From the IMG/VR virus record IMGVR_UViG_3300028591_000002, positions 110,718 to 174,717 of that record: 64,000 nucleotides of DNA; one strand, written 5' to 3'. A program made the translations under genes and the position numbers. Positions within the stretch are counted from its first letter, which is position 1. Each line of letters opens with the position of its first letter. Positions 24,289-64,000 of the stretch are shown piece by piece. The DNA comes from a virus. Lineage: Duplodnaviria > Heunggongvirae > Uroviricota > Caudoviricetes. The notes under the pieces are model-generated. The model was not told the DNA's origin. It saw only the letters and a program-made list of their open reading frames with translations, and did no database searches.

Positions 24289-24318
24289 AAGTAACCGTAT
24301 TCATGACTACTATGTTTA

Positions 24319-24347
24319 GTGGAGCCTATGGGAGTCGAACCCATGTC
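24319..24347 (-). other. orphan tRNA 3'-fragment (T-arm plus acceptor 3' strand)
   Basis: tggagcctatgggagtcgaacccat, a near-identical copy of the 3' part of the 23490-23563 element; no 5' half nearby. Confidence 0.4.
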
Positions 24348-24607
24348 CAAAATAACTCAAATAAAGAAATTTAATACAGGTTTATAAATCATATAATAAA
24401 TTCTAAAATTCTCAGTGATAGTTAATGTCTCACAACATTATAAAAGTTTCTGTTACCAAGTACTTTTAAAACTCTGGCTTAGGCAGCCATGTTGAAATAA
24501 TCAATTTCAGCAGTTAATTTTAATTTGTCAAATTTAAAGACTTCAACGTGTCTACCTGATTTCTGTATTTAATATTATCTGTCAAAACCAAATAAGGCCC
24601 CGATTTG

Positions 24608-28757: not shown

Positions 28758-29831
28758 TTATTTAAATAATGAAATTATTACACAACGTTGGGAAGTTCTG
28801 GTATTTGCACCCATTCCTTCTAATTTATTAATTTTAACTCCCTTATTAGAAAGATAATCTGCAACTGCCTTTGCTCTTTGTTCAGAAAGAATCTTATTAT
28901 ATTCTGGATTAGAAGAGTCTTCAAATGAAGAATATCCAAATACATTTACAATTGAATTTTCTCCAATATGTTTAACTAATCTATCAAGAATATCTTTGGA
29001 ATTATCATCAAGCTCCGAACTATTAAAAGCAAATGGAACAAAGAATGGATTTCCAGTATTATGAATTATTTCCCTTACAATAGTCTTTTCCACAACATTT
29101 GGTCTTGGAGGACGTCTATTTTCCAATTCTTTGATTTTTGCTTCATAATATCCAATGTCGTATGTCTTGAAATTATGAGTTCCATTAGATGTCTTAAATT
29201 TATGAACAAATGTTACTCTAGGTTCAAGTTGTGCTCTATTTTTATTAAATTGTAATTGGTCACCATTATTAGAAATTTTCCACAAGACATCAGCTCCAAC
29301 CTGTAGTGCATTAGCATCACTTAGATTAAATCGTACTGCAGCTCCTGTCTTAATACCAAATGCATTATTATCTTTGCGATGTGGTATATAGGCATGAGCA
29401 TAATCGACACCACCTCTTACAAAGAGTTCTGCTTTATGTGGTTTATTAAAATATGGATACAAAATATTAGTAACATTAGTAGTACCAAATAATCCTACAC
29501 CTACTCCCCGAACCGCATTATGAGCATAGGGATGGTCGAAACGATTAGTAATTCTGTTATGATTTGCATCAAATAACTGTGTACTATTACTTCCGAACCA
29601 TAAATCACCCTCAATCTCAGCACCAAATATAGGATCGAACTGCTTACCTAATACAAGATGTCCCATTGGATTTACTGGGAATACCTTATTAAAAGTAAGA
29701 GGAGTTGCTACACCAGCACCTACACCTGCATACCAGTTATCCATGAAATTAGTTGAACTTGTTGCAATTTGGGCATTGCTTGCCATGAAAATTCCTAAAG
29801 TAAGGAATAAAGATAAAATAAATTTCTTCAT
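28758..29831 (-). CDS. OmpA-family outer-membrane protein (beta-barrel plus OmpA C-terminal-like domain)
   Basis: Signal peptide MKKFILSLFLTLGIFMASNAQ; C-terminal ...NPEYNKILSEQRAKAVADYL... resembles the OmpA/MotB peptidoglycan-binding motif. Confidence 0.6.
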   Translation of the reverse strand: MKKFILSLFLTLGIFMASNAQIATSSTNFMDNWYAGVGAGVATPLTFNKVFPVNPMGHLVLGKQFDPIFGAEIEGDLWFGSNSTQLFDANHNRITNRFDHPYAHNAVRGVGVGLFGTTNVTNILYPYFNKPHKAELFVRGGVDYAHAYIPHRKDNNAFGIKTGAAVRFNLSDANALQVGADVLWKISNNGDQLQFNKNRAQLEPRVTFVHKFKTSNGTHNFKTYDIGYYEAKIKELENRRPPRPNVVEKTIVREIIHNTGNPFFVPFAFNSSELDDNSKDILDRLVKHIGENSIVNVFGYSSFEDSSNPEYNKILSEQRAKAVADYLSNKGVKINKLEGMGANTRTSQRCVIISLFK

Positions 29832-29871
29832 TTTACATTAAACATTAATTAATTAATAAAAAAATCTAAAG

Positions 29872-29943
29872 TAGGGCCAGTAAGATTCGAACTTAACACC
29901 AGCAGAGTCAAAGTCTGCTGTGCTACCATTACACCATAGCCCT
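29872..29943 (-). tRNA. tRNA-Gln(TTG)
   Basis: Anticodon arm gcaga-ctTTGac-tctgc; D-arm tggtgtaatggtagcac. Confidence 0.85.
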
Positions 29944-30584: not shown

Positions 30585-30633
30585 ATTCTCTCAGTTTAAT
30601 ATGTTATTAATAAATTGGGAGGATGGAAGTTGT

Positions 30634-30703
30634 GCTACGTTTTGGAATCGAACCAATTATAGAGAATTTAAAATACTCTGTGTTACCATTACACCATACG
30701 TGC
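30634..30703 (-). tRNA. tRNA-Gln-derived tRNA with UUA anticodon (ochre/amber-suppressor-like), possibly degenerate
   Basis: Body nearly identical to tRNA-Gln(TTG) at 29872 (tggtgtaatggtaacac). Anticodon arm gagta-ttTTAaa-ttctc with one U-U mismatch. The acceptor stem pairs over only 4 bp. Confidence 0.45.
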
Positions 30704-31003
30704 TAATCAAAATTACGTTTCTTATTGAAGAACAAATATATTAATTTTTTCTTTCCTAAAAAAATAATTTTTGTTAAAAAAATAGAAGAGAAATATTAAA
30801 GATACCTCAGCTTTAATTTTCCCTTCTATTGTTGGTATTTTTACCCCGTAGCATGATTATGGTATGCCCTTACCACCAACGCTTCATGTTGAACATTGGA
30901 GAAAGTCAACATCTTTGTAGATTGATGTAAACTGAGGTAGTATTTAGATTATTAAGGGGAAAGGTTATACTTTACTACATTTTTTTACCTTTCCCCTATA
31001 AAA

Positions 31004-32995
31004 TTATTTTACCTCTTCAAACTCGGAAGAATCTTTTTCTTCTTTGTCATCCTTTGGAAGTTCTTTGTTTTCAGCAGTAGGAAGTGTTCCCTTAAAGAGC
31101 TTCTGGAACTGACCCTTAACTCCACTATTAATCATGTCAAGAGATGGAGCAAAGGCCGCAATGAAACTCTTAGCAAACTGTGCACCAGTATTACTATCAC
31201 CATAAACAGAAACCTGACCAAGCTTGATATTCTCAAGAACCTTAGATTGTGCTGCAGCAATTCCTTCATAATGCTCAGTCATCTTGAACTGAACAAAGAG
31301 ATCAGGATTTCCTCCAAATGCATCTACCATTTCTCGAAGAGCAACTGCAGGAGCCATTTCTCTCTTCTGATATGCATCTGCTTCTGCAAACAAACGAGCT
31401 CTTTCACCTTCAGCTTCAGCAAGTTTAACTTGTTTAGTACCTTCAGCTTCTGCAAGCATTGTCATACGAGTTGATTCTGCCTTAGCTTCAGCCTCCTTAA
31501 GAATTCTTTGCTTTACTGCTTCTGCTTCAAGGATGGCTTTTTCTTTGATTGCTTCTGCTTCAATAATTGTCTTCTTCTTAGCCTGTTCAGCTGGAATAAT
31601 TTCATCAGCTTTTAATTTAGCTTCAACTGCTTTAGCTTCAGCTTCATTAACTTCAAGCTGACGTTGTTGCTTAGTCTTAGCTGCAGTCATATCTGCCTCA
31701 ATCTTAGCAACCTGAACAGTCTGGTCAGCATCAGCTTCTGCTTTACCTGCTTTTGCACGTGCTTCTGCAACCAAAATCTTTGCATTTTGTTCTGCTACAC
31801 CTGCATCTTGGTCTGCTTTTGCTGCACGAATCTTCTTTTGTGATGCATATTCAGCAGTTTGTGCTTCTTTCTCTTGAGTTGCTTTAGCAATTGCAGCTTC
31901 CTTTTGTTGATTAGCCTGCTCAATACGAGTTTGTTTAGCAGCTTCTTTCTCATTTTCAGTAGCTTCAGCATCTGCTTTAGCAGCGGCTATAGCTTTACGC
32001 TGAGTTGCTTCAGAATCTGCTTTAGAAGATTCTGCTTTTGCTTTCTGTTCTGCAACGGCAGCAACCATACGTGCTTCAGCTTCTGCTTTCTTAGATTCTG
32101 CATCTGCTTCAGCATTAGCTACAGCAGCAGTCTTAAGAGCTTCTTGAGTAGCAATACCAGATTCTCTCTCTTTTTCAATCTCAGCTAATTGTACTTGCTT
32201 TGCTCGTTGAGTATCAGCAATCTGAGTTTCCTGGTTTTTCTCAATTTCTGCTACTTTAATAGCTTGCTCTTGTTTAGTTTGAGAAACTGTAATTTCTCTT
32301 TGTTTATCAGCTTCTGCAACATTAATTTCTTGCTCTTGATAAATCTTTGCCTTTCTTACTTTTCCATCCTTTTGCTTTTCAGCAATGTCAGCTTCTGCTT
32401 GTGCTCTAGCATCGGTTTCCTTCTTCTTACTCAAGTTATTGATGATATCTTGTTCATCAGCTACCTCTCGAATATTGATATTAAGGATTACATAACCCAC
32501 CTTAGCTAATTCTATACTCAAACTCTTATTAACTTTATCTTGGAATTCCTCCCTATTAGAGTTTAAGTCTTCTACAGTCATAGTAGCTACTACCAATCTT
32601 ATGCTACCATCTACAATAGTCTGCAATACATTTTCTATTTCATCTTGATCAGAGCTTAAAAAACGCATTGCAGCATTTGGTTGTATTTCTGAATCTGAAG
32701 AAATAGCAGTAGTTAAAGCAGTATTAACTCTGGTTTTAATTTTATTTATATCAGGACTTATGATGTTTGAAGTAATTTGAATAGGCCGCATAGACATAGT
32801 TTTGTAGTCCTGAATAACAGGCCATACAAATACACCACCTCCAGGATAAAGTTTAGCAGCAGATTTACTGCCTACTTTACCATATACTACCATAAGTTGG
32901 TCACTTGGACATTTTCTATAACGAGAAAGAAGTCCTACGATGGTTGCTATAATAAGAAGAACAACCACTGCTGTAATAATTAAACTTGAATACAT
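31004..32995 (-). CDS. SPFH/band-7 (flotillin-like) membrane protein with long Ala/Glu/Lys-rich coiled-coil
   Basis: N-terminal TM helix, SPFH-like region, then about 300 aa of EA/KA heptad-like repeats; 663 aa. Confidence 0.75.
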   Translation of the reverse strand: MYSSLIITAVVVLLIIATIVGLLSRYRKCPSDQLMVVYGKVGSKSAAKLYPGGGVFVWPVIQDYKTMSMRPIQITSNIISPDINKIKTRVNTALTTAISSDSEIQPNAAMRFLSSDQDEIENVLQTIVDGSIRLVVATMTVEDLNSNREEFQDKVNKSLSIELAKVGYVILNINIREVADEQDIINNLSKKKETDARAQAEADIAEKQKDGKVRKAKIYQEQEINVAEADKQREITVSQTKQEQAIKVAEIEKNQETQIADTQRAKQVQLAEIEKERESGIATQEALKTAAVANAEADAESKKAEAEARMVAAVAEQKAKAESSKADSEATQRKAIAAAKADAEATENEKEAAKQTRIEQANQQKEAAIAKATQEKEAQTAEYASQKKIRAAKADQDAGVAEQNAKILVAEARAKAGKAEADADQTVQVAKIEADMTAAKTKQQRQLEVNEAEAKAVEAKLKADEIIPAEQAKKKTIIEAEAIKEKAILEAEAVKQRILKEAEAKAESTRMTMLAEAEGTKQVKLAEAEGERARLFAEADAYQKREMAPAVALREMVDAFGGNPDLFVQFKMTEHYEGIAAAQSKVLENIKLGQVSVYGDSNTGAQFAKSFIAAFAPSLDMINSGVKGQFQKLFKGTLPTAENKELPKDDKEEKDSSEFEEVK

Positions 32996-33619: not shown

Positions 33620-34276
33620 TTATTTCTAAGTCATTATCGATGTAACTCCTATATCATAATTAGAACCTAACAAATCTTTTAAAGGGTCTTCCATTATATT
33701 CCCATGAAAGTTATGTCTAACTACCCAATCTTTTCCATTATGTAATAAGATTCCTGTATGAGTTCCTTGAGAGTATGAATTTCCTTTTCTTGATTTATAA
33801 TCCCAAGGACTTAAATTAACATACATATTAGCTACATAAGATTGTTTAGGATTTAACTTACTTATATCAAGTTTCTTTTTTAAATTTTCTGCTGCATCTA
33901 AATTATAAGAATAATGATTCTAATAGGAATTACCCTTTCTATCTTTTAAAGTAATTCCTTCATAACCATTTATATAAGGTTTAACATAATCATGAGTCCA
34001 AGCATTTCCCCCTTTTTCTCTTTTAAAATATTTATTTACAAAGTGGGCACATTGTGGACTTGTATGTTTCTAACCTGTAGGATGCATTCGATATCTTTTT
34101 CTACCTCGTGCATCTGAGTATTCTGGAGGTGCAGGCATCATTATCCCATGCATTGAAGCTCTTTTTAAAGGATTTGCTGGAGTTAACATATCTGCATATC
34201 CAGAAGCTTTCTAAATAATATTTTTTATTGCACTAAGAACATCACCTCCAAACGAATATTTATTAATTTTATTCAT
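33620..34276 (-). CDS. hypothetical hydrolase-like protein; gene contains 3 in-frame TAG codons (TAG-recoded)
   Basis: Own translation of the minus strand gives a continuous frame of about 215 codons ...MHPTG(TAG)KHTSPQCAHFVNKYF...SQGTHTGILLHNGKDWVVRHNFHGNIM... ending at TAA 33620-33622. The ORF track sees only the last 66 aa (33626..33826). The start coordinate is approximate because of the display gap. Confidence 0.55.
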
Positions 34277-34850: not shown

Positions 34851-35439
34851 TTTTATATAAATTTAACAATTTTAAATTGTATTTACAGTAATCACAAAGT
34901 TTAAATTTATTTTTAAAATTCGCTTTACCTTTAGCATCTTTCATTATACATGTCTCAACATCTTTAGAACAATGTGAAACACAATAATATGTATGTATAA
35001 ATTCGTGAATTATTACTTTCCAATAATCTCTATTTTTATTTTTTAATCTATAATCTGAAACTACACAAGTATAAGTATTAAGAATTGAAAGTCCTAAAAT
35101 TCCCCAATCATCATGATTTCTTAATGTAGTTGAAATATCATCATGTAATAATCCAATTATTATATGTTTTTTAGATGCTTTTTGCTTATACTTATTTATA
35201 ATTTTATTTCCTCTATATCTTGAATGATTTACATTATATAAATCATCAGAAAGATTTTGAGGAGATTTTATTATAAATACCGGATTTAAATTTAATTCAT
35301 TTGTTATAAATTCTTTTAATTTAGGAACTAACTCTTTAATTTCATTAATTTTAAAATTATTATATGGTTGTAGTTCTACAATTATTTTTTCATTTATAAA
35401 AGAATTTAATATTATATATGCTATTAAAATTAGTTTCAT
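34843..35439 (-). CDS. zinc metalloprotease (HExxH)
   Basis: IIHEFIHTYYC contains HEFIH; signal peptide; 8-nt overlap with the downstream gene. Confidence 0.55.
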   Translation of the reverse strand: MKLILIAYIILNSFINEKIIVELQPYNNFKINEIKELVPKLKEFITNELNLNPVFIIKSPQNLSDDLYNVNHSRYRGNKIINKYKQKASKKHIIIGLLHDDISTTLRNHDDWGILGLSILNTYTCVVSDYRLKNKNRDYWKVIIHEFIHTYYCVSHCSKDVETCIMKDAKGKANFKNKFKLCDYCKYNLKLLNLYKNE

Positions 35440-37208
35440 ATTCTATTATTATAATAGGCTTTTATCATTTTTCCTTTACTGTTCATAATACTATCAGGAT
35501 TATTTTCTCCCCAAGACATTTGCATTTTTCCATTCTTTTCTATTAATTTATTACCCTAAACTTCTGGAAGAACATATACTGTATCATTGTCATTTAATAT
35601 TTTATCATTGTACAAATGAGACATAACTCCACAATCTGGAGAAACACATCCATATGAAACTCTTTTAGATGCTTTAGAATTTTTTAATGCTTGTAATCTA
35701 CTATTACTTGCTGGACTATGTAATGCCTATCCTATTTTTCCAGGAGAATCTGGATACATTATAAACAAAGGTTCTTTTCCTAAATAGTTACTATTAGCTC
35801 TACTTTCTAAAGTAAATACTCCAGCACCAGTAGTACGTGGAGAATCTGATAAATATTTAGCATCACTATTAACCATCATATCTCCAACATTTTTTCCTAA
35901 TGTAATTGGATGTTCTTCCAAAAGTTTATCTTTTTGATAAATCTATAATTTTTGATTTACTTTATCTATTACACCGTATCTATCATTAACATTGTATTTT
36001 GATTTATGGTCCAGTATAGCCTAAAGTCCAGTATTAGGGGAATCTTCAATTTCTTTAGCTGGCTTAAATAATTTACTAATAAAAGAAATATTTGGAAACA
36101 TAGAAGACTTAATAATCTAAGGTTCATTTATCTATTTCTATGTAGATTTTCTACTAGCAGCTTCTTTTGCCATAGCTTGTCTAGTTTTAGGACCCATAAT
36201 TCCATCAACCGCTTGTTCAAAAGTAGTTCCTTCATCATAGAAGCCTCCTTTAAAAAGTCTTTCTTGAAGTCCTGCTACATTTTCAACATAATTATTTCTT
36301 CTTCTTGATTCTTTTTTAACTGCCTTATCTCTAACAGTCTTTTCGTTTTGAACTTTAGAATCTACATTATTTAAATGTTTATTAAGTGTATTATTCCAAC
36401 GAGATTCTAAATTAGTTTCATTTTGTTTTTGTTCTTCTTGAACTTTTTTCTTTTCTTCAGCATATTTTTTGAAATAATTAAACTTATCTCCATTCTATGC
36501 TTTTATTAGTCCACCTTCCTAAAAGAAAGCATGGTATATATCATTTCCTATCATACCCAATCCAAATCCATTTGAAAATTTTGAAAAATTAGACTTTTGT
36601 AATCTATTTAATCTATTTGCAGTTTTTGCCATAGGTTTAGCTAAAGGTTTATAAGCTTTTGCTCCGACTTTTGCAAGTTTACCAAGACCTCCAATAAAAG
36701 GTAATATAAAAGCCGCATCAGTTAATCCTTCTTTCCATCTTCCTTTTCTAAAATTTTTAATGGCATCATATCCAGAGATTAAAGAACCTACTGGAGTGAA
36801 ATAAGGAAGAGATTTTATTATTCCTGAAGTTAAAGCTCCTGCTATTCCTGAATTTTCTAATCTCTATAAATTGTCATCTAAACCTAATTTTTTAGCTATT
36901 CCAATTACAATATTGGCAGATAAACCTTCATCTTCTTCAGGGGTATTTTGTCCAGCATTTCTAGATACTAAACCTTTTTTTGATAATAATTTCTAACCAG
37001 CACTTGTGATTCCTTTGCTATCTTTAATTTTAATAGCTGTTCCATCTGAATTTAATTGATACTAATCTCCCAAATCATCTGTGGAAATTACACCTAATCC
37101 AATCTTCTTTCCATCTTTCTTCCAGACACCTTTTCCAAAGTAACCTTTATTACTTTTGTATCTTTCTGAGGTATCAAAGTAATAACCTTTCTAATATTTT
37201 TTAACCAT
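35436..37208 (-). CDS. peptidoglycan-binding-domain protein with YkuD-like C-terminal region; 11 in-frame TAG codons (TAG-recoded)
   Basis: Own translation: ATG at 37206-37208, 591 codons, only TAG occurs in frame, terminates at TGA overlapping the ATG of 34843..35439. Contains ...FEQAVDGIMGPKTRQAMAKEAA (PG_binding_1-like) and ...RVSYGCVSPDCGVMSH (YkuD-like). Invisible to the standard-code ORF track. Confidence 0.65.
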
Positions 37209-52682: not shown

Positions 52683-52880
52683 TAATTGTGTTTTACGCCT
52701 AAAACTTATAACCTGTATAGGAAATCTCGACGGCCCCCAACTCACTTAATGGATGGGATATTTAAGATTTTACATAAGAAAAACTGGCGTCCTCAACATC
52801 TTGGAAATCTCCATGCAGGCAGTATCCTGCGCTTCTCTTTTTGATTAGGAGATATTTTATATTGAGTTTTTAAAATGATT
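52683..52880 (-). promoter_or_regulatory. conserved ~200-nt 5' leader, copy 1 (contains hairpin gttttacgcctaaaac immediately upstream of the start codon)
   Basis: Shares the blocks ttttac(g/a)cctaaaactta, aactggcgtcctcaac...cttggaaa and tt(g/t)tattgagttttt(t)aa with 54960-55170. Confidence 0.45.
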
Positions 52881-52899
52881 CAGTAAAAAGCTTTCCGCA

Positions 52900-53130
52900 T
52901 AAAAAACCCAAATCTCATGATATGGATCCGAAATCATCATGATTTTTTTGTTTTTGCCATTATTTATAGTCCCAGAAAAACCCAATAAGGACTAGAGAAA
53001 ATGGTTCGGTAAAAGCATTATGCATGAAACCCGAACCCCCATGAATTATTCGAAACTATCATGATTTTTTGTCTTTACTGTGTTTTATAGTCCCAGAAAG
53101 ACCAAAGAAGACTCCTGCAGAGGAGGAGAT
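52900..53130. repeat. two tandem ~110-nt direct repeats
   Basis: ...catgatttttttgtttttgccattatttatagtcccagaaaaacccaataagg... vs ...catgattttttgtctttactgtgttttatagtcccagaaagaccaaagaag... Confidence 0.5.
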
Positions 53131-54360
53131 GCTTACAATAACTCTACTATTAGAAGAGAATGACTCTTAACACCATAGTAGCAGTTAATAAGGAGGATGT
53201 TTTTCTATAGGCGGCTATGTTCTTCCTGCTATTTGATGTTATCTCACAGGCCTTTTTTTACTTTCCTATAGAATCCGTTTCGTCTTAATTTGCAAAGACT
53301 CTTCAGGGAGCATCTACACTCCGACGGAAGAAAATTTCAAAGGGAAGAACTGTTTTAAATACACAGTTCTCCCCTTTCACGCGTGCCATATTTTACTTTC
53401 TCTTGAAGCAAATATGATTATACAACAAGTACAATCTCCTCAGATGATTGTTACTTTATTCTTAGCCTTGCAATCGACTAAAAATACACTACTCTTAGTA
53501 GTGGTCTCAAGCTAGTTTCGAGACTATTGCACCTAACCCTCTTGGCAAGTTAGAATCTCGCCAGTGTTAAAGAGAATTACTGGACTTTATTATTCAAATC
53601 TTTTACTGGAGCTATCAGTAATTAATTCTAGCGTGTGTTTGTCTGGAACACGCATCCTTCCATAGATAGTTCTCTATCGACGATTCCACCAGGCATTTTT
53701 GAACATTATACAAATAGTCTTGTATTGACCAAATGCTCAATAGCCTATCCCCTCGTGGACTTGGTGGAAAATTTCAGCTGATTTAAGTCGGTCAAAACTA
53801 TAGTGCTTTTAAAAAAAATGAAAAAATTTAAAATGCACTTAGGGTTTTGTGCGAACCCATTAAAATTAAAATACCATAATATTTGGAGGATAGATTAATG
53901 CCTTCTTGCCCACTATTAGGTAGTTTAGAATTTAAAAGGGAGAACATTACTGCTCTCCCTCTTCCCCCATCACCAACCTATATTATTACAGGGTAGATTG
54001 GTTCCCTATTTAAGGTGAGAAGTTTGGTATTCTCCCCTGGACTCTAGCCAGACCAATGGTTCATTGACTTACAATTATACCATCAACTTAGCACCCCTTT
54101 ACTCAAGAGGGGAAACTAAGAGCCACTATGTGAGTGAGTATCACACGCCCATCCTTCCAACACTGGGAATCCGCGTAGCAACGTTTGCACGGAAGGACTA
54201 CAACTATTTGTAGCTGTTATATGCAAACTGATATTGTTCTCTCCGCCAGAATCGGACTGGGCTTATTTTTTTCGAAGTTCCTCACCCAAGGTTTCATTAG
54301 AACTACGGGAAGCTACACCACAACTTCCTGAGAGAGAGTTTAACTTTTAAAAGTTTCCAG

Positions 54361-54390
54361 AATAAAAAAGCTCCCTCACGGTTTGGGAGC
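54361..54390 (-). terminator. rho-independent terminator (minus strand)
   Basis: agctccc-tcacggttt-gggagct hairpin with A8 on the plus side (U-run on the minus transcript). Confidence 0.6.
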
Positions 54391-54738
54391 TGTTCCAAAC
54401 ATTTGAACACGACCTCTTACAATGTACAAAGAAGGTAGTTTGGGCACTACGATACTAATATGCTGGCACACAAAAGTATTACGGAATCATCTTACTGCCA
54501 GATAAGATGAAACATTGTCCTATATTTCAAGGGAATTTACTCCTTGTCACTAACCGTAGAACTCAGATTTTTTTATTATCCAGTTAAATAGTGTGATGCT
54601 ATAAAACTTTAAGTGTATTCACCTTATTTTACATCGAATGATACACCTCGATGTTCCAGCTCGCGAACTGGATTTTGAGAGTTTTAGATACACTCCCGTT
54701 TAACACACATACTTTTCGGCAATCCAATACGGCTTTCC

Positions 54739-54951
54739 TTATGTGTGTTCTATAACCCATTTTGAACCATCCCATTTTACTGGCTTAGCACCATCGCTGA
54801 TGCCTGCGTATGTGCAGTTTACAGAATCTGATCCGTAACGGAAACAATCTGCACAATAGCATTTGCCATTATCTGGGTCAAAACATCCGTTGCCGTCATA
54901 GACATGGATAATTTTCCCATCTTGGTTAGTCCATCCCATATAATTTGCCAT
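54739..54951 (-). CDS. small Cys-rich protein (70 aa)
   Basis: MANYMGWTNQDGK...8 Cys; preceded by the conserved leader copy 2 and followed by ~340 nt of 3' UTR and the terminator. Confidence 0.4.
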   Translation of the reverse strand: MANYMGWTNQDGKIIHVYDGNGCFDPDNGKCYCADCFRYGSDSVNCTYAGISDGAKPVKWDGSKWVIEHT

Positions 54952-54959
54952 ATTTCACC

Positions 54960-55170
54960 ATAATGCGTTTTACACCTAAAACTTATTCTTTCTCATATCT
55001 GGGTATGCATCATGCAGACAGCCCGACCCGTCAATTGGAAGGAACTTAATCCTTACAACCCAATTGCTCATAGGCGAATAAGAAACTGGCGTCCTCAACG
55101 ACTTGGAAACATACATAATTTCGGTAATCCAATACTATATATGCTTTTGTATTGAGTTTTTTAATTCTTA
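54960..55170 (-). promoter_or_regulatory. conserved ~200-nt 5' leader, copy 2 (hairpin gttttacacctaaaac)
   Basis: Same conserved blocks as 52683-52880. Confidence 0.45.
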
Positions 55171-56461
55171 TAGATAATTAAATTAAGGCTGAGTGTTGAC
55201 CTTTAATGCTGTCTTTTCTATCTTTTTCAAGAATATCACACACCTAGGATTAGTAGGTAGACAACATACGGACTAGTTTTTGATAACTAGCTATCACTAC
55301 TCTCATATTATGTAGATTACTAGCTCGCTCATGGTGCTTGCGGCCAAACAGGATGCCTCCTGAACCCAGATGAGTCTACTTTCACCTTTACATTTTCCTT
55401 GCGGTACTCATGTAATCCACGTATTTCAGTGGAACAACCGTATTTTCATACGAGAGTGTACAACACTTTTGCTAACTAATGTTTTTTACAAATTAAATGC
55501 ACCAAATGCACTTTTTGTTTGCGTATAACTTTAATTAGAGCTTTGCCTGGAAGATGTGGTTGTACTTGTCACCATACTGGCTTTTGACCAGCTACAGGTG
55601 CGACACCTCCCTGTTTTCTTCTGCCACGAATACTCACTTTTAATAGTTTTATTTATCCTACCATTTCTGACTCAAGTAACCAGCTGAAGCCTCTTATTGG
55701 TTAAGAGATAGGACATTACTATTAAATTATATACTCTATTGGACTGGCAATCCTTTGGAGTATATTTATACCATATATTGTCGATGTTACCATCCAAGGT
55801 AGGTTAGCAAGACCCACCGTATACCTCTTCAACTCTGCCCGAGTATCCCAAGATATACTCATATGATATAGCTTTCAGGTGGACATTTGTTTACACAAAT
55901 GCGCATACTCTTTCTAAAGGAGCACACTTTATAGCATTACTGCTTTATCCTAAAGACACGAAGCCTGCCTCTCCATCATCCTTCACATTAATTCCGTAGA
56001 ATTGTGTGCCGACTACTTTGGACTTGTCGGGTGTAGATTTAAGAGGTTGTTCCCCCAAAAATTGAGGGAACTTATCGATTCTAGATTGTAGAAGGTATGG
56101 CAATCCACGCCATATCTCCATACTTAAGAGTTTTTCTCACAACAAATGTTGGAGGTTTTTCTTCTGATTTTAGCAATTTGTTTAGGACGTTTCGGTGTAT
56201 CCACAATAAACGTCCATTTTGTTGGAAACAAATGCTATTCCTCGACATTCTAATGATGTTCAAAGGAAAGTGGATTTCGATTATTTCCATTTTGCAAAAT
56301 GTATATTTTCGGTGTTTTGAAATATTTTTTTAGGAAAAAAAGTGGAAATTTCTGGGGGAGGATAACAGTACCAACAACCGACACTGTCCACTCAGAAATT
56401 TCCAAGAGGAATTTTCAGAAGAGAAATGATATTCTAATCAAAATCTCTCCTGAAAATAGTT

Positions 56462-58392: not shown

Positions 58393-58489
58393 AATAAAAG
58401 GATTTAGAGTGAAACATTGTGGCAGAGCCGACTCGACGAGCCACCCTACCTATTACTATAGATTTTACTTACGAATTGACTACTTTTTC

Positions 58490-58522
58490 CTTACGCTGAC
58501 CCCCGGGGGGTCTAAGCGTAAG
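58490..58522. promoter_or_regulatory. large imperfect palindrome in a divergent intergenic region (candidate operator or origin element)
   Basis: cttacgctgaccccc|ggggggtctaagcgtaag. Confidence 0.4.
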
Positions 58523-58570
58523 TGTACTCTCTCCCTCGTAATTTTCAAAAAAAATTTTCTTTCTGGAATA

Positions 58571-58579
58571 GGGGGGGGG
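58571..58579. repeat. G9 homopolymer
   Basis: ggggggggg in an otherwise AT-rich intergenic region. Confidence 0.6.
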
Positions 58580-58658
58580 ATTAAGAATTGTTAACATCTA
58601 TTAACTTGTATTTAAGATTGACAAATACTATCTTTGTTTCAGTTAAAATAAAAAAGTT

Positions 58659-59000
58659 ATGAATGAAAAAGAATTAATAAAAGCGGTAATTGCACTTCTA
58701 AAATTAAATTTAGAAGAGCATACTTCAGTTAATGACAATGGAACTGAATATAGTGTAGATTTGATAGTGAAGGACAACAAATTAGACCTTCATATAGAAA
58801 AAAGAGAAGATGAATTTGAAAATTGGGTTAAAACACTTGATGACGAATTATTTCAAAATGCTTTAGAAAGAACAGTAGAAGCCTTTGATGTAGATACAGT
58901 TTCTGAAATTGAAGATAAAGAAGAATTAAAAAATGTATTTAAAAATATGGTTTCAAAGATTGCTACTGAAAGAATTGAACAATTAAAGCAATATGTTTAA
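58659..59000 (+). CDS. hypothetical acidic protein
   Basis: 113 aa ORF; one of the few plus-strand genes. Confidence 0.5.
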   Translation: MNEKELIKAVIALLKLNLEEHTSVNDNGTEYSVDLIVKDNKLDLHIEKREDEFENWVKTLDDELFQNALERTVEAFDVDTVSEIEDKEELKNVFKNMVSKIATERIEQLKQYV

Positions 59001-59265
59001 AGAAACAGCACAAGCCTTAAATGCTATTCATATTTTGGATAGAAATTTTACAGACTTATTAAATCAATGTAACGAAGTGCGAGAAGAAATTCAAGCACTT
59101 CGTTTAGAAAATGAAAAATTAAAACAAGAAATTAAATCCTTAAAATTGCCCTATGGTGTAACGGCTAGCACAGGTGGCTCTAACCCATCTGGTCTGGGTT
59201 CGAATCCTAGTGGGGCGACCAATACAGAAAAAGATGATAAAATTTTTAATGAAAGTACTGGTTAA
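58993..59265 (+). CDS. hypothetical coiled-coil protein (the 3' part is probably not coding)
   Basis: The N-terminal 50 aa look coiled-coil. The remaining frame runs through the suppressor tRNA (the GSNPSG-type translation is typical of tRNA sequence), so the true end is uncertain. Confidence 0.25.
   Translation: MFKETAQALNAIHILDRNFTDLLNQCNEVREEIQALRLENEKLKQEIKSLKLPYGVTASTGGSNPSGLGSNPSGATNTEKDDKIFNESTG
59147..59221 (+). tRNA. tRNA-Sup(CTA): amber suppressor, Gln-derived, with genomically encoded CCA
   Basis: tgcccta-tg-gtgt-aacggcta-gcac-a-ggtgg-ctCTAac-ccatc-tggt-ctggg-ttcgaat-cctag-tggggcg-a-cca. D-arm like tRNA-Gln at 29872; anticodon CTA at 59180-59182. Confidence 0.8.
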
Positions 59266-59452
59266 ACTCTTACAAAAATTATGTAACAAAATTATTAAAC
59301 GTAGTAAACTTGTTGATAAAACTGTAAGAGAATTCAATTTAGAAAATGAACAATGGTTCATAAATTGGCAAGATGAATTAAATGCAATTAGCGTAAAATA
59401 AAAAAGGTGAGCATCAAACGATGTTCACCTTTTTTCGTATTAGTCCACCTAA

Positions 59453-60595
59453 CTATTTCTTAGGAATTAATTTTATACCTTTCTTTGCTTTATTAATTTG
59501 TTTATTACCAAATGTTAATGGAATCAATGGAATTAAACCATATCTAATATCAGGATTACTAAAATTATCTCTTAATCCTAAAGGTATTCTAATACCATTG
59601 TCATCATAAGTTACTGCATCTGCAAGTTTTACTCTTCCAGATTGAGGAGGAACTATAAATGCATCTGTCCAACGTTCATTTTTTACTAAACCAGAGCCTG
59701 CCCAGTCTTTTTCTATATCTAGAGCATTATACCCTTTAGAGTCTAAAAATCTACCAATAGCTCGTTTTGCTTTTATAGCTTCTGTTTTCCAATCCTTTTT
59801 AAATGCTTCTTCAAATGCTTCTGGATTTTTTCTATATTCCAAAAGATATTGTATTCTAGTTTTTAGTTCTTCTGGCAACATTTGCAATAATTCCTTTTTA
59901 TTTTCTACTTTTAAGGGATTATTAAACTTAACATTTAAAGGTATTTGATATTCCCCAAATCCAATAGGTCTATTTGTACGTTTAGTAAATATTCCGAAAG
60001 GAGATAAAACATCTTTAGAAGAGTGTTTACCAAATGCACTGAAAGTATTAAATGGTTCTTTAGTTTCATGAAAAAATCCAGGAGTATAACCTTTGATAAT
60101 TGTATGTAAATCTCTTAATCTTTGAGCTTCTATCATATCTCCTCTTGCAATAGCAACATCTTGTACTGCTGTCCATTGTTCTGGAGTTTGTGGAAGTTTT
60201 ATAAAACTAGTTCCTTCAAAAGTTTTAACTAAACCGTCTTTATCTAAATAATATAAGACACCTTTATTTCCTGGAAGAAATCTAGGATCTCTAGCTAATC
60301 GCTATAATCCAGCTACTGTACCTCTTGTAGCTATATAATCAATTGAGTTAGATTCTGGAAATAATATTTCCCCACCTTCTGGAATTTCTTTATAAGCAGC
60401 ATCAAATAATGCCTGCTTTTCTTCTTTAGTTATTTTTCCAGGAATTTTTTCTCCATCCCAAACCCTCATATGAACTCTATATTGATTAGGATTTGGATTC
60501 TCTATTACAAACTCTCTAGGTCGAAGTTTAGTATGTGTTGGTAACCGGAGTCTTGTTATATAAGGTTCTAATATTTTAATTATTTTATTATTCAT
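59453..60595 (-). CDS. hypothetical structural/late protein, TAG-containing (joins ORFs 60302..60604 and 59453..60136)
   Basis: Own translation: the frame of ORF 60302..60604 continues through the TAG at 60302-60304 and a further TAG at 60245-60247 into 59453..60136 without TAA/TGA; ATG at 60593-60595. Confidence 0.55.
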
Positions 60596-61517
60596 AATTT
60601 CCAATTCCTACTACAGTAGCAATAACTGGAGCAGTTTTTAATAATGTTTTAAGATAAGGAACAAACTAATCTTTTAAAACTTTTTTACCAAAAAATCCAT
60701 AAGCATTACCATAAGTATTAAGTCCCATTAAATCATTAATAACGTTTGCTTCAGGTAAACTATCAACATAATCTTCAAAAAGTTTTCTATTCTATTTTAT
60801 AGATAAATCTTTTTGTCCTTTAGGATTATTAAATGCATATTTTCTAATTAATTCACCTATAGTAGACCTAGCTTCTTCTGGAAGTAATGAGTCCTCATTA
60901 AAACTATGAGTATTATTATAAGCTAATTTTAAATCTTCTAATTCTTTAGAATCTTTAAAAATTTTATTTATAAACTCTTTATATATATTATTATCTCCAG
61001 ATAATTCTCTATAAATATCATCTGTTCCATGCATATTTCTTTCATGGAAAATAATAGATGGAACATTTTTTAGAGTTCTTTGAGTAGGGTCTATAAAAGC
61101 TACTCCAGACTTAGGAAAATACGTACCCCCAACACCTTCTTCATTAAAATAACCTAAATAAGTAGGTTTTTTAAAATTATCTTCTAATATAAATTTCCTA
61201 GGAATAATTCCCTTTTCTCCTAAAGGTTTATCTAAATCATATCCTAAAGCTTCTAATCTTCTTATGGTTTCTTTTGCATGGGTTTTATTAAATCCCAAAG
61301 TATCAATTTCATACAAAGGATTAAAACTTTCCTATAAGGCTAAAGCTTTTACATTTTCAGGTAATTCTGTAATTTCTTTAGGATTTAGATATTCTTTATA
61401 TTTTGAAGCATGTTTTTCTACTAACTATTTAAAAGGAATTTGTTCTAAACCTTTACTGGTCATTGTATATTCTGGAACTCTAGATATTAATTTAAAAATA
61501 GTTTTAAATTTGCTCAT
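60588..61517 (-). CDS. hypothetical late protein, TAG-containing (includes ORF 60792..61316)
   Basis: ATG at 61515-61517 preceded by aaggagg at 61529-61535; translation MSKFKTIFKLISRVPEYTMTSKGLEQIPFK(TAG)LVEKH... runs through several TAGs into ORF 60792..61316 and ends at TAA 60588-60590, overlapping the next start. Confidence 0.55.
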
Positions 61518-61547
61518 AAATAGTTTTTCCTCCTTTTTTAGTAGCTT

Positions 61548-63053
61548 TTAAAATTTGATTCTTTTTAGTAGTTCTTCCATCCTAAAAAGATACATGAATC
61601 CAATCATAATCAAATTCATTAATTAATTGTTTAACTACAATTTCTCCTTTTAAAATCATAGATTTAATTAAATCAAATAAGACTTTATTATCTCTTTTAG
61701 AATCACTTACACTTCTAATATCAGCTGCATTTCCATAACAATGGTCACTAGTTATAGAACCTCCAACTTTTTGATTTAAAAGTTTACATCTAAATCCAGA
61801 AGATACTACTATTGATTTACCATACTTATCTCTTATAGGTTGTAATACAATCTAACATAACTTCTTTAAATTCTCCTATTGCTATTTATTTGGGGTATTA
61901 TTAATTCCCAATCTTTTAGCAGTAGGAGAATTTATTAATTCCTCTAAAGTAAAATTCTTAGTTAATAACATTTTGGAACTAATTTATATAAGGTACCTCC
62001 ATTACGATAACCTCTATTTAACATTACTCTAAATCTCTTTCTATCACTTCCACCTACTGAACCATGTATTCCAAGTTGGTTTAATTTCTATAAAGCTTCA
62101 GTTTGATTCCAAGAAGTTATTCCTAATCTATTCATAACAGCTTTCTTTAATTCTGCATCATCTTCAACAGCTCTAACTAATCCAACAGTATCTTTTACTC
62201 CTTTAGATTTAAACATTCTTCTAATATCTTTTCTAGATTGTAATGGATAATCAGAACTACTCTAAGAAGAAGAAACGTTAGTATTCTGTTGAGCTTGTTG
62301 GGTAGGTTGTAGTCTATTTATGATAGATGGATTTATCTATTGTGGAGCAGTTTCTATACTCTAGTTTCCTTCTGAAATAGGTCCATATTCTTGTGGAGAA
62401 GTTTCAACTATTTGAGGATATTCTCCAAAATCTCCATTTTCAGTACCTTCAATTTCCTCTTCTCTAGAACCTGAATGAGCAAGTAAAGGATATAAAGCTG
62501 TAGCTCCAGCTGCTGCTGCTGCATAAGGCCAAGCTCTTTTCCAAAAAGCTTTCTTTGGAACTATTTTTTCTACTGCCTTTTTTCCTGTTTTACCAGCACT
62601 TTTAGCAACTAGAGCGGTTTCCTTTTTAGCAACTGGAACTAATGCTTTCCCTTCAGGAACTCTAGTATTACTTCCAAAAGATTGTTCAAATCTTTGTGCT
62701 GGAACTTTTCCAGATTGTCCAGGAACCCAACCTTTCTATATTGCTTTATCTGCTTTTCCTTTAAATATTTTATTCAAAGCATTATTATAAGCTTCCTAAT
62801 ATTCTGGAAGAACATTTCCATTTCTACGTATTGCTGATTCTAATGCTTTTATTTCTTTAGCATCTGTTATTCCTAAATCTTCAAAAGTAATTCCACTCTT
62901 TTTTAATGCTTTATATACTTTTTTCCATTCAGGTAAATTTGACATTCCTTTTAATGCTTCTTCAAAAGCACTTAATTTACTACTAGCTTTTACTGAATTT
63001 TTAATAGCTACTTTAGCTATTCTACCCCAATGGGCTTTTGGTATTAATTTCAT
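61548..63053 (-). CDS. hypothetical late protein, TAG-containing (includes ORF 62796..63053)
   Basis: Starts at the ATG of ORF 62796..63053 (in-frame TAA just upstream); the frame continues through multiple TAGs (…GNVLPEY(TAG)EAYNNALNKIFKGKADKAI(TAG)KGWVPGQSGK...) to TAA 61548-61550. Confidence 0.5.
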
Positions 63054-63069
63054 ATGTTATAAAATTTGT

Positions 63070-64000
63070 TTGCATATTTTGCTCTTTGAATATAATTACC
63101 ATGATTTGGATTCTAAAAACCTTTAAACCTTTCAAAACCATAGCCAAAAGCATGAGAAGCTTCTCCCACTGTTTTAGCATTTCTTAAAGCCTATAAAGTT
63201 TTAGCATATGGACCATTTAATTCATTCCAAAGATAATTTAACTACGTATCTAAATCTGTCCACTTATCTCCTCCAAACTTCTTTAAGTTTGATAATCTTC
63301 CTGCATGCCACTAAGCAATACCTGCAGATGTTCCTTTGTCTCCATAAATATGGGTCCTAAATCCAGATTCTGCATAAAGGTTTCCCATAATTCCTGCAAC
63401 GGCTTCTCTAGAAAGTCCTTTACTTAAAAAGAAATTTTTAATTTTTTGTGCAGAATTTTTTGGAGTACTAATCTTAACTTCAGTATTAGACTAAGGTGTA
63501 GTAGTCTACTAAGGAATCTACTAAGAAGTCTATTGCTCAGTCTAAACAGTTGGAAATTCTACAGGAGGCATTTGAGAAATTATATATCTTCTTAATGGTG
63601 GAGTAGAACTCTAAACATTAAGATTTGGAAGATTTATTTCAGGCTATTCTACATCAATATTTTCAAATATAGAACTTAAATTTAAACCTGTCTATCCTTT
63701 CAATATTCCTCCAAACTAATGTTTCCATTTTCTTGCATTTGCAGCAAAAGTTGCTCTCTTAACTAAAGTAGGATTACCAGAAGCTTTAGCTCTAGAAATA
63801 CAAGCATTAGTTACTTTTCCTCCACAATAATCTGTAAACTTACCTCTATTCTTCTTTTTAATATGAATTCCTCCTTTTTTAAGGAATGGAATATGATATA
63901 AGTCTTGGAAAGAAGTAAAAGAATTCAAATTTTTATCTTCTTTCTTAGAGGCATTACTTAATAACTTTAAATTTTTACGATTATTTATCATCATTATAAT
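63070..64000 (-). CDS. hypothetical late protein, TAG-containing, 5' end beyond the window (includes ORF 63716..63994)
   Basis: The frame of ORF 63716..63994 continues leftwards through TAG codons; the 3' boundary is approximate (display gap in line 63601). Confidence 0.35.

Follow-up and report, generated by a model that had tools for sequence, protein, structure and literature searches.

A glutamine-type amber suppressor tRNA gene convergent with TAG-containing lysis-type genes in a probable zeta crAss-like phage

A 64,000-nucleotide (nt) stretch of the tailed-phage record IMGVR_UViG_3300028591_000002 in IMG/VR (positions 110,718 to 174,717, hereafter the window) was analyzed with respect to a tRNA gene with the anticodon CUA, located on the plus strand at 59147-59221, and to the protein-coding genes in its vicinity. 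The window, with a GC content of ~30%, carries replication-type genes, helicases, a PurZ-like gene, a tail lysozyme, a tRNA array and a transfer-messenger RNA (tmRNA). ARAGORN identified 29 RNA genes, of which the CUA tRNA, referred to below as the suppressor, is the sole plus-strand representative, the other 28 being encoded on the minus strand; the nearest of these tRNAs lies ~10 kb from the suppressor, while the main tRNA array is found at 23-30 kb. Two members of this set are central to what follows:

59147-59221, plus strand: suppressor tRNA, tRNA-Sup(CUA), with a glutamine-type body, discriminator A73 and a CCA encoded at 59219-59221 (from ARAGORN, Rfam, family covariation and the D-arm motif).
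29871-29943, minus strand: resident tRNA-Gln(UUG), which has the D arm, variable loop and T loop in common with the suppressor, and differs from it in the acceptor and anticodon stems.

The suppressor was called by ARAGORN as a 75-nt tRNA with the anticodon cta at position 34. The acceptor stem of 7 base pairs (bp), as drawn by this program, consists of U1-G72, G2-C71, C3-G70, C4-G69, C5-G68, U6-G67 and A7-U66, two G-U pairs (U1-G72 included) being present within it. It is followed by a D stem of 4 bp with an 8-nt D loop (AACGGCUA) in which GG is present, an anticodon stem of 5 bp (+1), a variable loop of 4 nt, and a T stem of 5 bp closed by the T loop TTCGAAT (UUCGAAU in RNA), while the 3' end is formed by the discriminator A and the encoded CCA. 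An earlier reading of the letters without database searches (the sequence-only reading) had proposed a complete cloverleaf with the anticodon loop ctCTAac and an encoded CCA, both of which were recovered here, and had named the covariance-model score and the position of CTA as the points on which the proposal should be judged. The Rfam tRNA model RF00005 matched 59147-59221 over model positions 1-71, i.e., the full model, with 51.3 bits (E=4.5e-8) compared to a gathering score of 29 bits, and ARAGORN places CUA at positions 34-36 of a 7-nt loop (C-U-CUA-A-C). The region 59147-59221 is a genuine, canonical phage tRNA gene with a CUA anticodon. The label tRNA-Pyl (pyrrolysine) assigned by ARAGORN was rejected, as it follows from the anticodon alone, and G18G19, a TPsiC-type T loop, an 8-nt D loop and a 4-nt variable loop are all present.

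Independent support for this fold was obtained from relatives of the suppressor. A pattern combining its D arm with the CTCTAA loop matched at least 119 IMG/VR contigs, on which near-identical tRNA sequences, 55 of them distinct, occur in different contexts; an exact search of IMG/VR with a 35-nt core of the tRNA returned no match. Covariation was assessed among 34 distinct family members of standard length, including the tRNA of the window. Standard pairs were observed in 98.3% of cells and both-side changes at 14 of the 21 stem pairs, values that were matched by none of 500 shuffles (0/500), while sliding the 3' partners to other registers reduced pairing to ~50%. The only pair found to be broken often is 1:72 (UA in 11 members, UG in 11 and unpaired in 11). 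These compensatory changes across the family support the cloverleaf, and on the evidence of its sequence relatives the suppressor belongs to an old and widespread family of phage suppressor tRNAs.

The sequence-only reading had also remarked on the resemblance of the D arm to that of the resident tRNA-Gln(UUG), and this observation holds: the D arms read TGGTGTAACGGCTAGCACA in the suppressor and TGGTGTAATGG-TAGCACA in tRNA-Gln(UUG), and the latter is the best global match to the suppressor among the tRNAs of the window, with a score of 28 compared to 14 or less for all others. The further claim that the suppressor was derived from tRNA-Gln is correct with regard to the type of its body and not with regard to a recent origin from the resident gene, since the two molecules have only 52 matching positions (~70% identity) and different acceptor and anticodon stems, arguing against a recent duplication. 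A scan for the D-arm motif TGGTGTAAYGG(N)TAGCACA in bacterial genomes, each species being represented by one, returned 120 loci, and 110 of the 119 plus-strand tRNAs called in these loci proved to be tRNA-Gln (64 with anticodon UUG and 46 with CUG), originating from many phyla, Bacteroidota among them. The suppressor states U1, G2-C71, C3-G70 and A73 are all common in these motif-bearing bacterial tRNA-Gln, U1 being shared with 89 of 102.

In contrast to the YUG anticodon that characterizes tRNA-Gln, the suppressor retains U35 and has A at position 36. As A36 in place of G36 is obligatory for a suppressor, the molecule is regarded as Gln-derived rather than as a reader of Gln codons. Among the identity elements of glutaminyl-tRNA synthetase (GlnRS), for which the sequence-only reading had suggested a check, U35, U1, G2-C71 and G10 are kept, while G36 is replaced by A36 and the first pair is U1-G72. 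The same D-arm motif was encountered in four bacterial tRNA-Arg(UCG), in which the first pair is G1-C72 and an A occupies the place at which the suppressor D loop has C or U. A20 and C35 are identity elements for arginine. An arginine origin was accordingly considered and found unlikely, given that these four tRNAs have G1-C72 and the D-loop A, and need C35. Judged on these sequence features, the body of the suppressor is of the glutamine type.

Genes that appear to need such a tRNA are present in the same window. With TAG treated as a sense codon, coverage by open reading frames (ORFs) increases from 0.52 to 1.0 at 60-64 kb and from 0.67 to 0.98 at 32-36 kb, while treating TGA as sense yields no gain in ORF coverage of the window. 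In-frame TAG codons are concentrated in seven genes, which together contain 48, as compared to five in the other 73 genes of the window. The need for a decoder, as claimed in the sequence-only reading, is thus borne out by the ORF coverage and TAG counts of the following genes:

59414-63994, minus strand: block of five TAG-containing genes with 2-15 TAG each, convergent with the tRNA.
63050-63994, minus strand: Phage_lysozyme2 protein, 15 TAG.
Within 59414-63994, minus strand: 363-amino acid (aa) protein, 6 TAG.
61504-61971, minus strand: Peptidase_M15_3 protein, 4 TAG.
Within 59414-63994, minus strand: 309-aa protein, 4 TAG.
59414-60595, minus strand: 393-aa polyvalent protein related to ART-PolyVal, 2 TAG.
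33620-34276, minus strand: TAG-containing gene, 4 TAG.
35436-37208, minus strand: YkuD-like gene, 13 TAG.

Pfam domains extend across the in-frame TAG sites, and the gene calls available for the source contig, k141_307136 of ENA (ERZ27256846; 178,305 bp), an identical copy of which occurs in SRR8436538, likewise read the TAG genes through. The two genes situated between 33620-34276 and 35436-37208 contain no TAG. Further TAG-containing genes were found just past the end of the window on the other strand, one of which codes for a membrane protein, possibly a holin. The block is transcribed from ~64.0 kb down to 59414, so that its 3' end converges with the plus-strand tRNA at a distance of 193 nt; the sequence-only reading had placed the tRNA on the opposite strand and immediately upstream of the block, of which the strand is right, while the position is upstream in coordinates only and transcriptionally downstream. 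The block is presumably expressed late, to judge from its gene content (lysozyme and M15 peptidase). Possible 'backup stops' located 2-13 codons past TAG-terminated early genes were also considered; they are no nearer than expected at 30% GC (an estimated ~16 codons on average) and were not used as evidence.

The residue inserted at these codons was addressed by evidence that does not involve the tRNA. In the lysozyme domain, the TAG sites in IAxWH and DTxLNY both correspond to Gln in six of six standard-code phages (Herelleviridae, SPbeta-like phages and unclassified relatives), for which six-frame translation was employed so that each Q represents a real CAA or CAG codon; in gp13 of phage phi29 (PDB 3csr), the IAxWH site is occupied by Gln and the DTxLNY site by Glu. 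Codon usage points in the same direction, as the TAG-rich genes contain 54 CAA, two CAG and 48 TAG codons, and the other genes 270 CAA and 87 CAG codons (24% CAG). A single transition converts CAG into TAG, and an origin of TAG by this route would be expected to leave the TAG-rich genes nearly devoid of CAG. Q is furthermore found at the TAG columns in the alignments of the YkuD-like and 393-aa proteins. The assignment of TAG to Gln is therefore supported, at the sequence level, by invariant Gln at two sites and by CAG depletion, in agreement with the glutamine insertion suggested in the sequence-only reading, and mass spectrometry has demonstrated this assignment in crAss-like phages (PMC9523058).

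Insertion of another residue (pyrrolysine, Glu, Lys, Trp or Tyr) at UAG is considered very improbable. Such a reading may draw on the tRNA-Pyl label, on those TAG sites that align with E or K in homologues, and on A36, the altered 1:72 pair and the D loop, all of which depart from bacterial tRNA-Gln; however, the label reflects the anticodon alone in a molecule whose canonical fold is unlike that of tRNA-Pyl, the D arm and U1 are hallmarks of tRNA-Gln, and the invariant-Gln columns and CAG depletion speak for glutamine. Moreover, Gln is the only residue to which TAG has been observed to be reassigned in phages of this kind (bioRxiv 10.1101/2021.08.26.457843; PMC9523058).

Taken together, the suppressor is very likely a functional glutamine-inserting amber suppressor, which would allow the phage to translate its TAG-containing lysis/virion-type genes in a standard-code host. 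It has been discussed, by Yutin et al. (PMC7886860) and in the description of the zeta phages (PMC12386605), that suppressor tRNAs of this kind may instead be directed against the host, where read-through of TAG stops would impair host or defence proteins, and many zeta phages indeed keep a CUA suppressor without any in-frame TAG (PMC12386605, Table 1). That the suppressor of the present phage is mainly such an anti-host device, or a relic, appears improbable, since the 48 in-frame TAGs in seven genes require a decoder, without which conserved enzyme domains would be cut short; the anti-host and decoding roles are in any case compatible and not mutually exclusive.

The immediate surroundings of the suppressor consist of small plus-strand genes, designated A, B and C, and of a conserved upstream region:

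58393-58658, plus strand: conserved non-coding region upstream of gene A, with a hairpin, conserved blocks and TATCTTTG at 58629-58636.
58659-59000, plus strand: gene A, encoding a 113-aa acidic protein without TAG, directly upstream of the suppressor family on the same strand.
58993-59265, plus strand: gene B ORF (90 aa), whose conserved, coiled-coil-like N-terminal part of ~51 aa corresponds to 58993-59146 (alignment A2).
59249-59401, plus strand: gene C, encoding 50 aa with the motif ...EQWFINWQDELNAISVK (gene call, profile matches and alignment A2).

None of the three genes contains an in-frame TAG, and they could therefore be expressed before suppression is in place. Profile searches located gene A homologues at 18 IMG/VR suppressor loci, in the same orientation as the tRNA and 30-660 nt ahead of it, and gene C homologues at 29 IMG/VR loci, in most of which they lie 80-700 nt downstream of the tRNA (~1.3 kb in one). 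Expressed relative to suppressor loci with enough flanking sequence, gene A is present in 13 of 99 and gene C in 25 of 102, and cassette loci are mostly found on contigs of 113-195 kb. The same A-B-tRNA-C unit was observed in close relatives (L252-L256), which were obtained only from the protein collection and whose gene A products are 62-77% identical. As regards the individual products, gene A has no Pfam match and only 15 representatives among 1.84 billion proteins; its AlphaFold2 model is of low to moderate confidence (predicted local distance difference test score, pLDDT, 68.7) and a Foldseek comparison of this model to the PDB returned nothing at E<=0.001. Gene B produces weak DivIC/ZapB-like coiled-coil matches, and no similarity to a synthetase or a release factor was detected for genes A, B or C.

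The relatives also clarify the nature of the ORF 58993-59265, which, as the sequence-only reading had pointed out, runs through the tRNA as a mechanical ORF of 90 aa. Gene B is terminated ahead of the tRNA by a TAA in L254 and L255 (63 and 55 aa, respectively; alignment A2), while the segment containing this stop is missing from the window, L252 and L256, where the frame continues through the tRNA, in the window as far as the TAA at 59263-59265. The tRNA is nevertheless conserved among these relatives and displays compensatory stem changes, e.g., G-G-U-G-G/C-C-A-U-C versus G-G-A-A-G/C-U-U-C-U; an encoded CCA is shared by the window, L254 and L255, and is lacking in L252 and L256. The portion of 58993-59265 that overlaps the tRNA is consequently regarded as incidental. 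The converse, i.e., that the ORF is the real feature and the tRNA fold is incidental or a dead pseudogene, might be argued from the uninterrupted 90-aa frame and from the 89-90-aa products annotated by gene callers in three lineages, yet it has a nearly negligible probability in view of the gene B stops in L254 and L255, the occurrence of the tRNA on at least 119 contigs in different contexts, its strong covariation and an Rfam score well above threshold.

A GC hairpin, which shows compensatory changes when relatives are compared, is located at 58484-58520 within the region 58393-58658 upstream of gene A. G-runs and two conserved blocks with no second copy in the window are also found in this region, and the block GTACTCTC.C.C is recognizable even in L086, which shares only ~30% protein identity. 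This region may represent a promoter or leader of the A-B-tRNA-C unit. Conservation of the cassette could reflect either function or shared ancestry. A more elaborate proposal holds that the suppressor is the core of a 'code-switch cassette' specific to large zeta-like crAss phages, in which the small proteins A, B and C would act with the tRNA in release-factor competition, tRNA processing or timing, and in which, in the present lineage with its lost gene B stop, RNase P cleavage at the 5' end of the tRNA would leave a non-stop B mRNA, coupling B output to tRNA maturation, perhaps with involvement of the phage tmRNA; this proposal is tentative and, in our estimation, rather unlikely.

With respect to how a glutamine-inserting suppressor would operate, we infer the glutamine charging, the co-transcription with genes A, B and C, the timing and the gating role as follows. 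The tRNA would be expressed from the plus strand, probably on one transcript with genes A and B ahead of it and gene C downstream, and excised by host RNase P and 3' trimming enzymes, its CCA being encoded. Host GlnRS would then charge it with glutamine, as proposed from the Gln features that are kept, i.e., U1 with a weak 1:72 pair, G2-C71, G10, the Gln-type D arm and U35. The charged tRNA would read UAG in competition with release factor 1, such that the TAG genes (which encode peptidoglycan hydrolases and further proteins with probable roles late in infection, in the virion or in lysis) would yield full-length products only once the tRNA is present, while replication-type genes without TAG would be translated throughout. 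A code-switch model of this type, together with a bias of recoding toward lysis genes, has been put forward by Borges et al. (bioRxiv 10.1101/2021.08.26.457843), and tRNA(CUA) with amber recoding of late genes has been reported for zeta crAss-like phages (PMC7886860; PMC12386605, Table 1).

Several observations weigh against this interpretation. At the level of gene organization, the tRNA is convergent with the TAG block, so there is no operon-type coupling between them. No release factor or synthetase gene was found in the subset of window proteins scanned (64 kb plus 3.7 kb of the 178-kb contig being covered). A sigma-70-type scan identified no terminator, and promoter-like sites close to the number expected from shuffles; the Bacteroidota -7 motif TAnnTTTG occurs 98 times in the window, compared to 96.7 expected occurrences, and is not enriched either, which renders the promoter reading of TATCTTTG weak. 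At the level of the tRNA, members of the suppressor family have A36 where true tRNA-Gln has G36, and A37 as opposed to the mostly G37 of bacterial tRNA-Gln. They furthermore possess an extra D-loop pyrimidine, the D loop being of 8 nt in 41 of 48 members compared to 7 nt in bacteria, and a weakened or non-Watson-Crick 1:72 pair (UU in 19, UA in 13 and UG in 10, with U1-G72 in the window), while U-A is found at 1:72 in 89 of 102 bacterial tRNA-Gln. Given A36, A37, the D loop and 1:72, recognition of the suppressor by GlnRS is no more than plausible. Finally, among the TAG sites, two of the four in the lysozyme domain fall in variable columns, as do all four in the M15 peptidase, which are uninformative, and the Q columns of the YkuD-like and 393-aa proteins are partly circular, as TAG codons of recoded relatives are already entered as Q in the protein database; these alignments were down-weighted.

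Two routes to glutaminyl-tRNA may be compared in this context. GlnRS opens the 1:72 pair, while the GatCAB route uses U1-A72 and the size of the D loop. We infer only that the 1:72 and D-loop peculiarities of the family would fit direct charging by GlnRS better than the GatCAB route.

The phage itself is probably a member of the zeta group of Crassvirales, its size, GC content, tRNA number, and CUA tRNA with amber recoding being in line with zeta crAss-like phages (PMC12386605, Table 1; PMC7886860). Homologues of the 393-aa protein adjoin crAss_MUZ genes on contigs of 164-172 kb whose genes also carry in-frame TAGs, and among named phages, the SNF2-type helicase matched only the crAss-like Cellulophaga phage phi14:2. 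The closest relatives of the M15 peptidase (61504-61971) are from Prevotella Lak megaphages (49% identity) and Bacteroides phages, hinting at a Bacteroidota host and at gene sharing among TAG-recoded gut phages. Among the subset of window proteins scanned, neither the crAss hallmarks (major capsid protein, portal, terminase large subunit (TerL) and MUZ) nor pyl-like matches were detected, and Pfam scans of ten larger window proteins revealed no synthetase, release factor or crAss hallmark. No match was returned by megablast of the 56-64 kb region against INPHARED, nor by a search of IMG/VR with the back-translated 393-aa protein, and no tRNA was present within +/-10 kb of the viral MUZ loci L004 and L006.

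Additional features of the window were recorded in the course of the analysis. Within a ~3-kb ORF-poor and GC-richer stretch (~52850-56000), a match to the GOLLD RNA (RF02032), a giant phage-associated RNA that forms cage-like multimers (PMC12286853), was obtained at 55186-55611 on the minus strand over the full 416-position model; its score of 95.3 bits (E ~1e-24) does not reach the curated threshold of 150, although it greatly exceeds what chance would produce, and the match probably explains part of the stretch. The same stretch harbors, at 53272-53330 on the minus strand, a match to the type III hammerhead ribozyme (RF00008) with 39.4 bits versus a threshold of 48.5 (E=6e-6 in a regional scan), in which the core motifs CUGAnGA ... 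GAAAC are present. The phage tmRNA (RF00023, 72.5 bits) is located inside the tRNA array at 24317-24601 on the minus strand, with the predicted tag AEIDYFNMAA.

Further unusual tRNAs were found on the minus strand. That at 30632-30704, with an ochre-type UUA anticodon, a Gln-like D arm, 35.3 bits and an acceptor stem of only four pairs, probably represents a Gln-derived paralogue that has degenerated; mutation of Gln(UUG) to UUA has been described in another crAss-like phage (Yutin et al., PMC7886860). The tRNA at 46431-46507 (49.5 bits) has an oversized anticodon loop in which ARAGORN reads the four-base anticodon UUCA, and could be of the opal type (UCA) or of a frameshift type, while the 168-nt match at 43805-43972 (40.2 bits) possibly contains an intron, the intron option of ARAGORN indicating an insertion of ~87 nt. 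Beside the 23-30 kb array, two minus-strand genes encode a 663-aa SPFH/Band 7 domain protein (31004-32995) and a 357-aa OmpA-domain protein (28758-29831). The minus-strand product of 8385-9530 matches phrog_1211, a PurZ-type adenylosuccinate-synthetase homologue (E=2.4e-47), a similarity suggesting that the phage may replace adenine by 2-aminoadenine in its DNA.

Suppressor tRNAs combined with TAG-to-Gln recoding of late or lysis genes have already been published for crAss-like phages, the zeta group included, and for other gut phages (PMC7886860; PMC12386605; bioRxiv 10.1101/2021.08.26.457843; PMC9523058), and the current analysis adds a well-supported case in line with the view that lysis/virion genes of gut phages are gated by way of a self-encoded glutamine-type amber suppressor. 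What is modestly new is the conserved A-B-tRNA-C cassette, of which no description was found in the cited literature on recoded gut phages, and the lineage-specific loss of the gene B stop codon; the cassette supplies a small and concrete set of candidate proteins for a role in code switching. In terms of annotation, part of the contig has to be gene-called with TAG decoded as Gln, as the lysozyme, the M15 peptidase and other products otherwise look fragmented, and a tRNA gene and a shorter gene B should take the place of the 90-aa ORF that spans 59147-59221.

Among known systems, the closest are the code-15 gut phages (zeta and other crAss-like phages, Lak phages and others), which likewise encode a CUA tRNA and read TAG as Gln, have TAGs in only part of the genome with enrichment in lysis/virion-type genes and standard-code replication genes, and possess an AT-rich genome with many tRNAs. 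No fundamental difference from these phages was noted, the local features being the lone plus-strand tRNA, the A-B-tRNA-C cassette and the lost stop of gene B. A cellular parallel is provided by supE of Escherichia coli (glnV44/glnX44), a tRNA-Gln with a CUA anticodon which keeps U35 and is charged with Gln by GlnRS despite A36. The phage suppressor resembles it in combining a tRNA-Gln body with a CUA anticodon and in keeping U35, but supE is a point mutation of a cellular tRNA, whereas the phage suppressor represents a long-diverged lineage in which the acceptor and anticodon stems are distinct, the D loop is longer by one base and the 1:72 pair is weakened; supE has been cited as a precedent for phage suppressors (bioRxiv 10.1101/2021.08.26.457843).

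The 'code change module' of the TGA-recoded Jade phages comprises a suppressor tRNA, a tryptophanyl-tRNA synthetase (TrpRS) and a release factor 1 (RF1) beside a lysis cassette (bioRxiv 10.1101/2021.08.26.457843). In both cases, the suppressor tRNA is found in a small group of standard-code genes beside highly recoded lysis-type genes; in the phage studied here, however, the recoding is TAG/Gln and not TGA/Trp, genes A, B and C lack synthetase or release factor similarity, and the orientation is convergent instead of upstream. The tRNA-Pyl, by comparison, has a short D loop and a 3-nt variable loop, and lacks G18G19 and TPsiC. Only the CUA anticodon is common to it and to the phage suppressor, which has the canonical elements.

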